64,000 nucleotides of DNA, taken from the sequence record NC_054917.1, one strand, 5' to 3'. Both the position numbers and the translations under genes were made by a program. The notes under the pieces were generated by a model, which did no database searches, was not told where the DNA came from, and saw only the letters and a program-made list of their open reading frames with translations. Position 1 is the first letter of the stretch; every line of letters begins with the position of its first letter. The stretch comes from Escherichia phage vB_EcoM_G50. Shown here piece after piece: positions 12,013 through 62,270 of this stretch.

Positions 12013-13723
12013 TAACCTTAATTGGTTTGTTGGTGTTGTTGAAGATAGAATGGACCCATTAAAATTAGGTCGTGTTCGTGTTCGTGTAGTTGGTCTGCAT
12101 CCACCTCAAAGAGCACAAGGCGACGTAATGGGTATTCCAACTGATAAATTACCATGGATGTCAGTTATTCAACCTATAACTTCTGCAGCAATGTCTGGAA
12201 TTGGAGGCTCCGTTACTGGTCCGGTAGAAGGAACTAGAGTTTATGGTCATTTTTTAGACAAATGGAAAACTAACGGAATTGTTCTTGGCACGTACGGTGG
12301 AATAGTTCGCGAAAAACCTAATAGACTTGAAGGATTTTCTGACCCGACTGGACAGTATCCTAGACGTCTAGGAAATGATACTAACGTATTAAACCAAGGC
12401 GGAGAAGTAGGATATGATTCGTCTTCTAATATTATCCAAGATAGTAATCTAGACACTGCGATAAATCCCGATGATAGACCGCTATCAGAGATTCCAACTG
12501 ATGATAATCCAAATATGTCAATGGCTGAAATGCTTCGCCGTGATGAAGGATTAAGACTAAAAGTTTATTGGGATACTGAAGGATATCCGACAATTGGCAT
12601 TGGTCATCTTATCATGAAGCAACCAGTTCGTGATATGACCCAAATTAATAAAGTTTTATCAAAACAAGTTGGTCGCGAAATTACTGGAAATCCAGGTTCT
12701 ATTACAATGGAAGAAGCGGTAACTTTATTTGAGCGTGATTTGGCTGATATGCAACGTGACATTAAATCACATTCTAAAGTTGGCCCAGTTTGGCAAGCAG
12801 TTAATCGTTCTCGTCAAATGGCATTAGAAAATATGGCATTTCAGATGGGCGTTGGCGGTGTAGCTAAATTTAACACAATGTTAACTGCTATGTTAGCCGG
12901 AGATTGGGAAAAGGCATATAAAGCTGGTCGTGATTCACTGTGGTATCAACAAACAAAAGGCCGTGCATCCCGTGTTACCATGATTATTCTTACCGGGAAT
13001 TTGGAATCATACGGTATTGAAGTTAAAACACCAGCTAGGTCTTTGTCGGCAATGGCTGCTACTGTAGCAAAGTCTTCTGATCCAGCTGACCCTCCTATTC
13101 CGAATGATTCGAGAATTTTATTTAAAGAACCTGTTTCTTCATATAAAGGTGAATATCCGTATGTTCACACAATGGAAACTGAAAGCGGTCATATTCAGGA
13201 ATTTGACGATACCCCGGGACAAGAACGATACAGATTAGTTCATCCGACTGGAACATATGAGGAAGTATCACCGTCAGGAAGAAGAACAAGAAAAACTGTT
13301 GATAATTTGTATGATATAACAAATGCTGATGGTAATTTTTTGGTAGCCGGTGATAAAAAGACTAACGTCGGTGGATCAGAAATTTATTACAACATGGATA
13401 ATCGTCTTCACCAAATAGATGGAAGCAATACAATATTTGTGCGTGGCGATGAAACTAAGACAGTTGAAGGTAATGGAACTATCCTAGTCAAAGGTAATGT
13501 TACTATTGTAGTTGAAGGTAATGCTGACATTACAGTTAAAGGAGATGCTACCACTTTAGTTGAAGGAAATCAGACTAATACAGTAAATGGAAATCTTTCT
13601 TGGAAAGTTGCTGGTACAGTTGATTGGGACGTTGGTGGCGATTGGACAGAAAAAATGGCATCTATGAGTTCTATTTCATCTGGTCAATACACAATTGATG
13701 GATCGAGGATTGACATTGGCTAA
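11996..13723 (+). CDS. 5: baseplate hub / cell-puncturing protein gp5 with lysozyme domain
   Basis: 575 aa; MEMISNNLNWFVGVVED...; lysozyme domain (EGLRLKVYWDTEGYPTIGIGH); C-terminal VxGxxxxx beta-helix repeats; matches recalled T4 gp5. Confidence 0.95.
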   Translation: MEMISNNLNWFVGVVEDRMDPLKLGRVRVRVVGLHPPQRAQGDVMGIPTDKLPWMSVIQPITSAAMSGIGGSVTGPVEGTRVYGHFLDKWKTNGIVLGTYGGIVREKPNRLEGFSDPTGQYPRRLGNDTNVLNQGGEVGYDSSSNIIQDSNLDTAINPDDRPLSEIPTDDNPNMSMAEMLRRDEGLRLKVYWDTEGYPTIGIGHLIMKQPVRDMTQINKVLSKQVGREITGNPGSITMEEAVTLFERDLADMQRDIKSHSKVGPVWQAVNRSRQMALENMAFQMGVGGVAKFNTMLTAMLAGDWEKAYKAGRDSLWYQQTKGRASRVTMIILTGNLESYGIEVKTPARSLSAMAATVAKSSDPADPPIPNDSRILFKEPVSSYKGEYPYVHTMETESGHIQEFDDTPGQERYRLVHPTGTYEEVSPSGRRTRKTVDNLYDITNADGNFLVAGDKKTNVGGSEIYYNMDNRLHQIDGSNTIFVRGDETKTVEGNGTILVKGNVTIVVEGNADITVKGDATTLVEGNQTNTVNGNLSWKVAGTVDWDVGGDWTEKMASMSSISSGQYTIDGSRIDIG

Positions 13724-36256: not shown

Positions 36257-36501
36257 TGGAAGGTTTAATTGAAGCTATTAAATCAAACGACCTCGTAGCC
36301 GCTCGTAAATTATTTGCTGAAGCCATGGCTGCAAGAACGATTGATTTAATTAAAGAAGAAAAAATCGCTATCGCTCGTAATTTCTTAATCGAAGGTGAAG
36401 AACCTGAAGACGAGGATGATGAAGACGAAGATGGTGATGATAAAGACGACAAAAAAGACAAAGACTCTGACGAAGATGACGAAGACGAGGATGATGAATA
36501 A
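36256..36501 (+). CDS. 67: prohead core protein gp67
   Basis: 81 aa with poly-acidic C-terminus ([12 protein letters not shown]...). Confidence 0.85.
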
Positions 36502-37594: not shown

Positions 37595-38404
37595 ATGCTT
37601 AAAGAACAACTGATTGCTGAAGCGCAAAAAATTGATGCTTCCGTTGCTCTTGATAGTATTTTCGAATCAGTTAATATTTCTCCGGAAGCAAAAGAAACTT
37701 TCGGCACTGTATTCGAAGCTACCGTCAAGCAGCACGCCGTTAAATTAGCTGAATCTCATATCGCTAAAATTGCTGAAAAAGCAGAAGAAGAAGTAGAAAA
37801 AAATAAAGAAGAAGCCGAAGAAAAAGCTGAGAAGAAAATCGCTGAGCAAGCTTCTAAATTCATCGACCATCTTGCGAAAGAATGGCTCGCTGAAAATAAA
37901 TTAGCAGTTGATAAAGGCATCAAAGCCGAACTGTTTGAATCCATGCTTGGTGGATTAAAAGAGCTCTTTGTTGAACACAACGTTGTTGTTCCAGAAGAAT
38001 CAGTTGATGTTGTGGCTGAAATGGAAGAAGAGCTGCAAGAACATAAAGAAGAATCAGCTCGTCTGTTCGAAGAACTCAATATGCGCGACGCATATATCAA
38101 TTATGTGCAGCGTGAAGTGGCATTGAGCGAAAGTACTAAAGATCTGACTGAGTCTCAAAAAGAAAAAGTCTCTGCTCTGGTCGAAGGTATGGATTATTCA
38201 GATGAATTCTCAAATAAATTGAGTGCCATCGTAGAAATGGTGAAGAAGTCTAATAAAGATGAAAGCACTATTACTGAGGGTATAAATACTCCTGATACTG
38301 AAGCAGCCGGACTGAATTTCGTCACTGAAGCTGTAGAAGATAAAACTGCACCTGGTGCAGAAGATATTGTAAGTGTATATGCGAAAGTCGCATCTCGTTT
38401 CTAA
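37595..38404 (+). CDS. 22: prohead core scaffold protein gp22
   Basis: 269 aa; highly acidic, helical; gene order. Confidence 0.9.
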   Translation: MLKEQLIAEAQKIDASVALDSIFESVNISPEAKETFGTVFEATVKQHAVKLAESHIAKIAEKAEEEVEKNKEEAEEKAEKKIAEQASKFIDHLAKEWLAENKLAVDKGIKAELFESMLGGLKELFVEHNVVVPEESVDVVAEMEEELQEHKEESARLFEELNMRDAYINYVQREVALSESTKDLTESQKEKVSALVEGMDYSDEFSNKLSAIVEMVKKSNKDESTITEGINTPDTEAAGLNFVTEAVEDKTAPGAEDIVSVYAKVASRF

Positions 38405-42967: not shown

Positions 42968-44128
42968 TTATGGATAGGTATAGATGATACCAGTTTCTAA
43001 AGCAGTTTTATGAATGATGTATCCATTACGCGATTCTTGAACATCAACTTCTGGATAGTCTTTCATCATCTTCTGAAGAGTGTAACGATGCAGGTAGTAT
43101 TTACTATCTGGATCTTCAGTTTTCCAATCTTTACCTTCTTCAGTCATTTTTTGGATTTCATCCATAACCCACCAACCGCACCAGATATAAGCTGAAGTAC
43201 GATGTGGAAGAGGATGAACATAAGGCAATTCACCTTCCGGTTCCGGAGCAACTTTATCAGTTACCTGAACTTGACCTTCTGCTGTAATAGTTTTGCTATC
43301 ATAATCAGTGGCAGTAACAGTTGCAGTAACTTCAATGGTTTGACTTCCAATAGATGATGTATCAACGGTGTATACATTAGTTGACCCTTCTACAGGAGAA
43401 GAATCTTTCTTCCATGAATACGTAATTTGTGCTTCTTCTGGAGCATCCGTAACGTTAGCAGTAAATGTAGCCGAAGCATCTTGCTGAACATTAATAGAAG
43501 GAGGAGTCAATGTAACCTGTGGATTCATTGTCTTTTTATTAACCGTTAATGATACTTCATTAGAAGTAACTTCCTTTTCATTATCTTCATTAGAAGTAAC
43601 TTCCTTTTCATTATAATTTTCTGCAGTTACTTGGGCTACACACTTAATTGTTTTAACTCCGCTTGTGGAAGGAGTGTAATTGAATGTAGCAGAAGTTGCT
43701 TCGCCTACAGGAGAACCGTCAACGTACCATTGATACGTAGCAGTTGCGCCAGATGGCTGTGAAGCTAAGGCAGCAGTAAATTCAACGGCTGTTCCGATTA
43801 CTCCTTCTGGAGGACTATTAGGAGTTACAGCTAAGGTAGTTGTTTGTGTCTTATTTTGAACTGTGATAGTTGTAGTAGCTTCTGCTGTTTCAGCATCAGT
43901 ATCTGGGACTGGGTTTGTTGCAACTACTTTAATAGTCTTTTGACCGGCAGGTCCTTTTAATACATAATTAAAAGTTGCTTCAGCTCCATCTTGTGGAAAA
44001 TCATCTACAGTCCAAGCATATGTAATAGGTCCATCTCCAGTTTGACCACTGGGTGTAGCAGTAAACTGCTTAGTTTCATCAATAACCCCTGTCGGTGTTT
44101 TAGGAGTTATATCAACTGTAAAAGCCAT
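42968..44128 (-). CDS. hoc: highly immunogenic outer capsid protein Hoc (Ig-like domains)
   Basis: 386 aa; MAFTVDITPKTPTGVIDETKQFTATPSGQTG... and C-terminal ELPYVHPLPHR...IIYTYP match recalled T4 Hoc. Confidence 0.9.
   Translation of the reverse strand: MAFTVDITPKTPTGVIDETKQFTATPSGQTGDGPITYAWTVDDFPQDGAEATFNYVLKGPAGQKTIKVVATNPVPDTDAETAEATTTITVQNKTQTTTLAVTPNSPPEGVIGTAVEFTAALASQPSGATATYQWYVDGSPVGEATSATFNYTPSTSGVKTIKCVAQVTAENYNEKEVTSNEDNEKEVTSNEVSLTVNKKTMNPQVTLTPPSINVQQDASATFTANVTDAPEEAQITYSWKKDSSPVEGSTNVYTVDTSSIGSQTIEVTATVTATDYDSKTITAEGQVQVTDKVAPEPEGELPYVHPLPHRTSAYIWCGWWVMDEIQKMTEEGKDWKTEDPDSKYYLHRYTLQKMMKDYPEVDVQESRNGYIIHKTALETGIIYTYP
43555..43614 (-). repeat. perfect 30-bp tandem duplication inside hoc
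   Basis: cttcattagaagtaacttccttttcattat occurs twice back to back; encodes NEKEVTSNED twice in frame. Confidence 0.9.
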
Positions 44129-48666: not shown

Positions 48667-49416
48667 ATGGCAAACATTATTCGTTGTAAATTACCAGATG
48701 GTGTTCATCGTTTTAAACCATTTACGGTAGAAGATTATCGAGATTTTTTGTTAGTTCGAAACGATATAGAACATCGGTCACCACAAGAACAAAAAGAAAT
48801 AATTGCTGATTTAATTGCTGATTATTTTGGAGACTATCCGAAGACTTGGCAACCATTTATATTTTTGCAGGTATTTGTAGGGTCAATAGGTAAAACTAAA
48901 GTACCGGTCACATTTGTATGTCCAAAATGTAAAAAAGAAAAGACAGTTCCATTTGAAATATATCAAAAAGAATTAAAGGAACCTGTTTTTGATGTAGCTA
49001 ATGTTAAAATTAAATTAAAGTTTCCTTCTGAGTTTTATGAAAATAAAGCAAAGATGATTACTGAAAATATTCATTCTGTTCAAGTAGATGAAATATGGTA
49101 TGATTGGAAGGAAATTAGTGAATCAAGTCAAATAGAACTTGTTGACGCCATCGAGATAGAAACATTAGAAAAAATTCTCGATGCAATGAATCCTATTAAT
49201 TTAACGCTACACATGTCATGCTGTGATAAGTATGTAAAAAAATACACTGATATAGTAGATGTGTTTAAGCTATTAGTTAACCCAGATGAGATATTTACTT
49301 TTTATCAAATTAATCACACACTCGTAAAAAGTAATTATAGTTTAAATTCAATAATGAAAATGATTCCTGCCGAGCGCGGATTCGTATTAAAACTGATTGA
49401 GAAGGATAAACAATAA
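48667..49416 (+). CDS. 51: baseplate hub assembly catalyst gp51
   Basis: 249 aa as in T4. Confidence 0.85.
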
Positions 49417-61407: not shown

Positions 61408-62270
61408 TAGAATGCTCCTTGGAAAATATTATCACCACTAGTAAATCTATTAAAATACCCTGCATCGCCAGGCTTGGTATAACTCCACGTATGGAATGGA
61501 TTCATATGATATGGGTGTGTATAATATGGATTATATGGATGTGTATAATATGGATTATACGGATTAAATCCAGGAGTTCTCCAGGTAGTGTTCCAACGAA
61601 AAGAATCGTTTTTAACCATCTTCTCAATTACATCTTTTATAGCTTTTTCACTATCAAAACTTTCTTTATTTTCCTTTGGTGAAAAAAGCTTATTTTCTAC
61701 ATCATTCCATGTATAAACTCGCTGAGCGGTTTTTGGAATATTGTCACGCTCTCCTCGCGCCATCCAATAAACAGGAACATTTAATATTTCACTCGCATGA
61801 TCGCAATGGTGAGCGAGATCGTCAATGTAACAAATTACGTTATATTTCTCTTTTGCCTTTTTGAACAACTCTTCTTTTGAAGAATCATGACCACACATCA
61901 TTACTTCTGAGAAGGCACCAGGAAAAAGAGCATTCAAATTAAATTGACGATTCAACAGAGCGTCAATAGAATCACCCAATGCTGTAACAGCTACAAAATT
62001 ATAATCTTCTTTTAATTTGTTAATTACACACAGGGCATCTTTATACGGAGACAAATAACGAATAAAATCTGAACGATTGTATTTTTCAATTAACTTGACG
62101 CCAAGTTCTTCATCACAATTAAAGAGTTTACCTGGAGAAATAAATTTCTCATCTTGGATCATTTTTAAAATATGTTCTAACGGAAGATTATATTTCTGAG
62201 CAAAATAAGGAAGGCCTGATTGCCAGCTTAAACATACTCCATCAATATCAGTTAAAATAGTAGGCTTCAT
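61407..62270 (-). CDS. HAD-like hydrolase with Tyr/Pro/His-rich C-terminal repeats, 30.2-like
   Basis: 287 aa; N-terminal HAD motif I LTDIDGV; C-terminus NPYNPYYTHPYNPYYTHPYHMNPF. Confidence 0.6.
   Translation of the reverse strand: MKPTILTDIDGVCLSWQSGLPYFAQKYNLPLEHILKMIQDEKFISPGKLFNCDEELGVKLIEKYNRSDFIRYLSPYKDALCVINKLKEDYNFVAVTALGDSIDALLNRQFNLNALFPGAFSEVMMCGHDSSKEELFKKAKEKYNVICYIDDLAHHCDHASEILNVPVYWMARGERDNIPKTAQRVYTWNDVENKLFSPKENKESFDSEKAIKDVIEKMVKNDSFRWNTTWRTPGFNPYNPYYTHPYNPYYTHPYHMNPFHTWSYTKPGDAGYFNRFTSGDNIFQGAF
61511..61558 (-). repeat. 24-bp tandem repeat (2 copies) in C-terminal coding region
   Basis: atgggtgtgtataatatggattat / atggatgtgtataatatggattat, one mismatch; encodes NPYYTHPY units. 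Confidence 0.85.

Follow-up and report, generated by a model that had tools for sequence, protein, structure and literature searches.

The hoc gene and its tandem repeat

The window, which is the whole 64-kb stretch of phage vB_EcoM_G50 (G50) DNA that was analysed, carries the gene hoc on its minus strand, and a tandem repeat lies inside this gene. The main features are as follows.

42968..44128, minus strand: hoc of vB_EcoM_G50, encoding the 386-aa head outer capsid (decoration) protein (QBO65049.1 / YP_010070007.1)
43585..43614, minus strand: repeat copy A (5' in the gene, gene nt 515-544), ATAATGAAAAGGAAGTTACTTCTAATGAAG, encoding (Y)NEKEVTSNE and modelled as a new low-confidence loop
43555..43584, minus strand: repeat copy B (3' in the gene, gene nt 545-574), the identical 30-mer, encoding (D)NEKEVTSNE, with which the G strand of Ig domain 2 begins in the model
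43583..43585, minus strand: junction codon GAT, whose G ends copy A and whose AT begins copy B, giving a novel Asp182

G50, a Tequatrovirus, comes from pig manure in Hameln, and its genome (MK327942, 167,728 bp, ~410x coverage) was described without mention of hoc (Korf et al. 2019, PMC6563267). The 386-aa product matches G50 Hoc (QBO65049.1 / YP_010070007.1) exactly in the protein collection, while comparisons in the annotated phage collection are to relatives of G50 and not to MK327942 itself; the best 12-kb match there is IME339 (97.7% identical). The gene is located between inh and 24.3 in the uvsW … rnlB-24-23 late-gene block of T4-like phages. Its neighbouring ORFs encode 226 aa (Inh), 503 aa (UvsW), 71, 92 and 334 aa (RNA ligase 2), and the order uvsW-inh-hoc-24.3-24.2-rnlB is that of T4, found also in a syntenic contig (by Pfam labels) and in annotated relatives.

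An alignment of the product with T4 Hoc (PDB 5vf3_Z, 376 aa; E 1.5e-206) extends over both full lengths and has a single 10-residue gap, which falls at the repeat. The original prediction had called the gene hoc and noted that its product exceeds T4 Hoc by exactly one repeat unit, and the ORF and the alignment agree with it on both counts. Hoc is marked by a capsid-binding domain at its C-terminus, which is homologous to residues 281-376 of T4 Hoc and has a conserved ESRNG loop, Arg300 and Asp313 (PMC10385173). In G50, the C-terminal ~95 residues are near-identical to those of T4 Hoc, with ESRNG, His-Arg and WVMDE present, and a Foldseek search with the G50 model retrieved the T4 Hoc C-domain (8t1x_X) at 98% identity. 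The N-terminal part of the AlphaFold model forms three all-beta domains, that is, an Ig-like string, for which NCAM Ig1-3 and RB49 Hoc (3SHS) occupy Foldseek ranks 1-2; the Pfam matches to Ig_3, PKD and I-set are below threshold. With this C-domain, Ig-like string and genomic position, the G50 product is Hoc, the T4-type head outer capsid decoration protein. By homology, it would bind the centre of the gp23 hexamer on the mature capsid and be dispensable for infectivity.

Window positions 43555-43614 form a perfect 2 x 30 bp tandem repeat, for which Tandem Repeats Finder reports a period of 30, 2.0 copies, 100% matches, no indels and a score of 120, the highest among its 45 rows for the 64-kb window. 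The unit reads CTTCATTAGAAGTAACTTCCTTTTCATTAT on the plus strand, identical to the unit given in the original prediction, and ATAATGAAAAGGAAGTTACTTCTAATGAAG on the coding strand. The periodicity extends over exactly 60 nt, with 0 extra matching bases at either flank, and the chance expectation of a 30/30 tandem is ~2.6e-10 over all positions and periods up to 500 at the base composition of the window. The only other perfect tandem with a period of at least 12 in the window is a 12-mer at 48800-48823. Further tandem repeats in the window, at 61509-61564, 13462-13570, 36405-36498, 37775-37836 and the last-named site, comprise 24 bp x 2.3 (93% matches, score 98), 24 bp x 4.5, 15 bp x 6.3, a GAA-rich run and the perfect 12 bp x 2; the 15 bp x 6.3 repeat is GAA/GAT-rich and presumably encodes an acidic tract.

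The duplication is in frame and starts at gene nt 515, codon position 2. Its junction reads …TCTAATGAAG|ATAATGAAAAG… in DNA and …VTAENY-NEKEVTSNE-D-NEKEVTSNE-VSLTVNKK… in protein, so that the copies agree at 30/30 positions and NEKEVTSNED is added, as the original prediction had it. The invariant Tyr172 is retained in copy A only. The ten-residue insertion has 3 Glu and 1 Asp (4 acidic residues) and 1 Lys (basic) among its residues, and the calculated net charge of Hoc at pH 7 goes from -23.1 to -26.1 with it.

Position of the repeat in the Hoc fold

AlphaFold2 models of G50 Hoc and of the single-copy Hoc of RB33, both of moderate overall confidence (mean pLDDT 76-78), were compared. The approximate layout of G50 Hoc and the region that differs between the models are as follows.

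Residues 1-93: Ig-like domain 1 (D1)
Residues 94-199: Ig-like domain 2 (D2)
Residues 200-292: Ig-like domain 3 (D3)
Residues 293-386: capsid-binding C-domain
43580..43624, minus strand: enlarged F-G connection of Ig-like domain 2 (residues 169-183, ~15 residues) in the AlphaFold2 models

In the RB33 model, the F strand of domain 2 (157-168) is followed by a six-residue turn (169-174, pLDDT ~91-93) and the G strand (175-187). In the G50 model, the F strand is again 157-168; it is followed by a loop at 169-183 (pLDDT ~46, and below 50 for 174-181) and a G strand at 184-197. Thus, as modelled, the duplication turns a tight F-G beta-turn within domain 2 into a loop of ~15 residues. The original prediction had placed the added residues between Ig-like domains, which the models do not bear out: the insertion lies inside Ig-like domain 2, between its F and G strands, and the D2/D3 boundary (…TVNKK|TMNPQ…, at ~residue 199) is ~17 residues past it. 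By these models, the insertion is in the hairpin of an Ig domain and not in a linker. In the standard Ig topology, the F-G loop is at the N-terminal end of the domain, and by this topology the enlarged loop would point to the D1-D2 junction, in the capsid-distal part of the fibre.

Among 77 aligned representatives of four-domain Hocs, variation clusters in Ig domains 1 and 2 (positions 54, 73, 77, 104, 107, 126, 160, 170 and 174, among others), and domain 3 and the capsid-binding domain are almost invariant. We also noticed that Hoc residues ~145-259 (window ~43352-43696) match dozens of antibody lambda light chains in the PDB (E ~2e-6 to 4e-4), a similarity in amino acid sequence that is unusually clear for a phage Ig-like domain pair.

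Distribution and origin of the duplication

The G50 Hoc allele forms a singleton cluster, with 1 member on 1 contig, among ~15 billion proteins. A 181-nt query across the site matched 617 phage records, and in the best 60 of these the full-coverage matches extend over 151 nt where there is one copy, 152 nt in the T6 records, and 439 nt where an additional domain accompanies the one copy; the duplication is seen in none of them. A codon-degenerate pattern for the exact junction (TSNEDNEKEVT) and a pattern for any KEVTSN…KEVTSN duplication with a gap of 6-24 nt both gave 0 matches in IMG/VR, GTDB genomes and JGI metagenomes, while the latter pattern did match its positive controls, the window and the contig L007 described below. 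No further case appeared in 21 IMG/VR loci, the complete E. coli genomes gave 0 matches, and no small tandem duplication in hoc is reported in the literature that we found. All other aligned Hocs, down to 44% identity, have a D2 F-G connection of one and the same length, and Tyr172 is invariant.

Among 120 of 905 Hoc cluster representatives (the matches listed) and 32 hoc loci, short tandem duplications are present only in G50 and in one further assembly. The latter encodes a 385-aa Hoc (P0040) on a 47-kb Logan contig from run ERR11808698 and contains a perfect in-frame tandem of 27 bp x 2.1 (L007, 3512-3567; score 112; 56-nt periodic stretch), across which the protein reads …TATD-YDTKEVTSN-YDTKEVTSN-EVSL…. 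As in G50, nearly the same stretch of the D2 F-G hairpin is duplicated. The ERR11808698 case differs from that of G50 in its unit (27 bp; 9 aa, YDTKEVTSN), in 2 nt of microhomology at the unit ends and in its allele, TATDYDTKE, whose unduplicated form is found in 6 of the 77 four-domain representatives among the matches listed; moreover, the Tyr is duplicated, whereas G50 has Asp in place of Tyr in the second copy. The two hoc genes are only 92.5% identical. The different allele, unit length and end homology, together with this divergence, indicate that the two duplications are independent events, as judged from the sequences.

A stable length polymorphism of the VNTR type would be expected to show copy-number alleles common to several genomes. 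What we found instead is two genomes, each with a private 2-copy allele, and no pattern matches in IMG/VR, GTDB genomes or JGI metagenomes, indicating that the repeat is not such a polymorphism. The suggestion in the original prediction of a polymorphic site thus holds weakly, in that one other assembly has an independent 27-bp duplication there, and fails in that no other genome surveyed has either allele.

The same prediction had allowed for an assembly artefact, in which G50 itself would have a single copy and the other 30-mer would stem from the assembler or the consensus step. No collection searched has a second instance of the G50 allele, and Korf et al. 2019 name two sequencing platforms (PacBio RSII with HGAP3, or MiSeq 2x300 with SPAdes at k55) without saying which was used for G50, both of which leave room for such an error. 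However, k-mers across the site each occur just once at 31, 33, 55 and 77 nt, and at the ERR11808698 site there is likewise no repeated k-mer of 31 nt or longer. At k = 55, the de Bruijn graph is thus free of ambiguity at the G50 site, and reads are the only possible source of the junction k-mers. In addition, MiSeq 300-nt or PacBio reads are long enough to cover all 60 nt, and the coverage is ~410x. An event of this type, with another unit length and allele, also occurs at this site in an unrelated assembly, for which other software was used (Logan, k = 31). An artefact is, on this sequence evidence, highly unlikely, and the two-copy variant is presumably the majority form in the stock, where it may have appeared while the phage was being propagated in the laboratory.

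The unduplicated allele (…AENYNEKEVTSNEVSL…) is common in relatives, including RB32/RB33 and T6, all of which have a single copy in the alignment to related hoc genes that had been proposed as a check. The single-copy sequence of RB32/RB33 Hoc is …VTAENYNEKEVTSNEVSLTVNKK…, and the 30-mer of RB33 differs from the G50 unit by 1 nt, which is synonymous; that of T6 is also 1 nt away, and the unit is matched at 30/30 positions by the terminal domain copy in a six-domain Hoc (L010). At the protein level, the AENYNEKE allele is found in 21 of the 77 four-domain representatives among the matches listed. The identity of the two copies, the abundance of the single-copy progenitor allele and the 1-nt distance to RB33 and T6 support the view, also put forward in the original prediction, that the event is recent.

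Two of the relatives have hoc genes that are unusual in other respects. In T6 (L008, NC_054907), hoc contains a +1 frameshift at locus positions 814-833 (GTTAAAAAGAATT against GTTAAAAA-AATT in RB33), ~35 nt upstream of the equivalent of the repeat site (window ~43650), and is annotated as two overlapping CDSs. A second T6 record (MH550421) has a span of 1132 nt as against the 1131 nt of a four-domain hoc, again +1 nt, and from these records T6 may be a natural hoc-defective phage. In L001 (MZ560701, phage TU01), ambiguous bases in hoc give X in the translation, a low-quality stretch.

Hocs with more domains are frequent among the relatives. In the 120 representatives among the matches listed, five-domain Hocs (472 aa) account for 29 and six-domain Hocs (568/570 aa) for 8; examples are those of L002 (KFS-EC3), L004 (Pu-Krd-SF4), L009 and L010, and the proteins P0002-P0039. 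Each additional unit is 96 aa long and is a copy of Ig domain 2; through divergence, the identity of these copies has fallen to 75-81% in DNA. KFS-EC3, whose Hoc is overall the closest to that of G50 (97% identical in amino acids), has a five-domain version, indicating that domain number changes between very close lineages.

These Hocs raise the alternative that the G50 gene descends from a five-domain Hoc (472 aa) by an out-of-register deletion of 258 bp between domain-2 copies, with ten residues left over. The abundance of five- and six-domain Hocs in close relatives (37 of the 120 representatives among the matches listed), the five domains of the nearest Hoc overall, KFS-EC3, and the presence of AENYNEKE in two domain copies of a few multi-domain Hocs (P0027, P0002, P0004 and P0005) are in line with such a history. 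The DNA of two of these four candidates, P0027 (L009) and P0004 (L010), argues against it: the two 30-nt segments within each differ by 1-2 nt, so that the deletion would leave an imperfect repeat, and the domain copies are just 75-81% identical. The internal copies read ACAATG…TCG and the terminal copy A[T/C]AATG…TCT, while both G50 copies are of the terminal-copy type and identical at 30/30 positions. The ERR11808698 duplication would, moreover, require the same unlikely history in another allele. On the DNA of these two candidates we reject this origin, which we regard as extremely improbable.

Taken together, the G50 duplication is very probably genuine and evolutionarily very young, having arisen from the common four-domain AENYNEKE-type allele presumably through an error that needed no end homology, and it would leave a Hoc with an intact fold and a longer loop. 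Neither the G50 nor the ERR11808698 duplication has diverged copies, and both are rare and private, which suggests that they are young and probably short-lived variants.

Mutational mechanism and possible consequences

T4-type phages replicate in a recombination-dependent manner, and short duplications and deletions are known in them from classical genetics. We infer that an error of replication or recombination without end homology struck a four-domain AENYNEKE-type hoc and copied gene nt 515-544 head to tail. Slipped-strand mispairing typically uses short direct repeats at the unit ends, and the G50 unit has 0 bases of microhomology there; simple slippage is therefore not directly supported, and we reject it as the G50 mechanism. 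The only internal direct repeat, TAATGAA, has a spacing of 21 nt, which predicts a 21-bp unit and not the 30-bp one. Folding of the DNA revealed the following elements around the two ends.

43625..43632, minus strand: 5' arm (AAGTAACT) of an 8-bp inverted repeat, from DNA folding of the ancestral RB33 sequence
43594-43601 and 43564-43571, minus strand: 3' arm (AGTTACTT) of this inverted repeat, one in each repeat unit
43547..43562, minus strand: second small potential hairpin, TAATGA-AGTA-TCATTA, with the right end of the duplication (GAAG|TA) in its 4-nt loop

The ancestral RB33 DNA has a folding energy of -7.4 kcal/mol (z = -2.5), and the left end of the duplication falls within the 23-nt loop of the potential AAGTAACT/AGTTACTT hairpin. 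A causal role of both potential hairpins in the duplication is speculative. The inverted repeat itself encodes 'QVT' in strand F and 'EVT' in strand G.

Two independent perfect duplications at the same spot of a loop whose length is otherwise fixed hint at a local mutational hotspot or at transient selection; the site may be mutation-prone or insertion-tolerant. In the first case, local DNA structure, namely the AAGTAACT/AGTTACTT inverted repeat, the TAATGA-AGTA-TCATTA hairpin and the palindromic GGAAGTTACTTCC core, would favour template switching, and duplications would recur regardless of selection. Folding of the ancestral single-stranded DNA is more favourable than that of shuffled controls (z = -2.5 to -2.7), both G50 endpoints are within predicted loops, and both independent duplications include the palindromic core GGAAGTTACTTC(C/T), with their left ends 1-3 nt apart. 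On the other hand, the hairpins have little stability (-7 kcal/mol, equalled by 2-5 of 200 shuffles), the right end of the ERR11808698 duplication lies in a stem and not in a loop, and hundreds of hoc genes have the same sequence without a duplication. We therefore hold a hotspot to be a tentative explanation, with perhaps a modest chance of being right.

The product of the event would be a Hoc fibre whose domains and capsid-binding C-domain are intact and whose F-G turn has become a loop ~10 residues longer. This loop would be flexible and more acidic (net charge -3 per molecule) and would be present on each of up to 155 fibres per capsid. Since Hoc is dispensable and the loop is predicted to be solvent-exposed, the change should be tolerated. 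Hoc domain 2 thus probably accepts an insertion of 9-10 residues in the F-G hairpin. Nonetheless, the otherwise invariant length of the F-G turn, down to 44% identity, and the invariance of Tyr172 suggest that the insertion may be mildly harmful and not neutral. The duplication is most likely neutral or slightly deleterious, with no phenotype or a slight one, although it may modestly alter surface charge, antigenicity or glycan contacts.

Small changes in the Ig domains of the dispensable Hoc are known to alter adhesion, as with D246N (PMC9271167) and the deletion of 29-33 (PMC13248984), and the acidity of Hoc has been linked to pH-dependent clustering and dispersion (PMC10385173). This raises the possibility that the loop extension was selected. 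The D2 F-G loop is equivalent in topology to CDR3 of antibody V domains and would face ligands or antibodies, and the gain could come from glycan or mucus binding, from immune escape or from negative charge governing the pH-dependent clustering of virions. The only two short tandem duplications in the Hocs surveyed (120 of 905 clusters, the matches listed) are in the same hairpin, turn positions 170 and 174 are among the more variable Hoc sites, and the 21-residue window over the turn has at least 10 alleles among 77 sequences. The four acidic residues and one basic residue that are added fit the reported link between acidity and clustering, and small Hoc changes do affect adhesion to glycans and mucus in the studies cited above. 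However, both alleles are singletons with undiverged copies that have neither spread nor persisted, the loop length does not vary in any other aligned Hoc down to 44% identity, and D2 contains none of the published binding determinants, which belong to D1 (residues 29-33) and D3 (D246). Two events also make for weak statistics, as their co-location would arise by coincidence with a probability of roughly 5% in the survey of 120 of 905 Hoc clusters (the matches listed). We consider selection for the longer loop unlikely.

By analogy with CDR3, the D2 F-G hairpin could be a recurrently hit, insertion-tolerant element that retunes the adhesion or recognition of the 155 capsid fibres, though we give this only a slim chance. 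Were it true, G50 and ERR11808698 would be snapshots of an ongoing adaptive evolution of loop length, and the site would lend itself naturally to internal display in T4 engineering. Current T4 display designs use fusions at the Hoc termini, and tolerance of insertions in the F-G hairpin may serve the internal display of peptides on T4 capsids. Taken alone, the G50 case matters little, being an ordinary small and recent mutation in a dispensable, well-studied protein of a published genome, and is probably a young, near-neutral error of replication or recombination in a surface protein.

Compared with T4 Hoc (highly immunogenic outer capsid protein; PDB 5vf3/8t1x), the G50 protein is longer by ten residues, which lie in the F-G hairpin of Ig domain 2, and has a charge of -26 at pH 7 as against -14, making it the more acidic of the two. 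The surroundings of the site in RB32/RB33 Hoc (376 aa), which has the single-copy AENYNEKE allele, are identical to those in G50 save the duplication and 1 nt in the unit, and RB33 Hoc differs in having one copy only and a tight, confidently modelled F-G turn. The five- and six-domain Hocs (472 and 568 aa) of Tequatrovirus and Mosigvirus have likewise changed their length by duplication centred on Ig domain 2; while these gained whole 96-aa domains that have since diverged, G50 gained part of one hairpin, in identical copies. In the tail fibre of EfV12-phi1, likewise a protein of the virion surface, a perfect tandem duplication arose recently and in frame during experimental evolution (PMC6365445). 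In contrast to G50, the EfV12-phi1 units are 1.8 kb long and variable in copy number, with a demonstrated link to host resistance, and they lie in a tail fibre and not in a capsid decoration protein.
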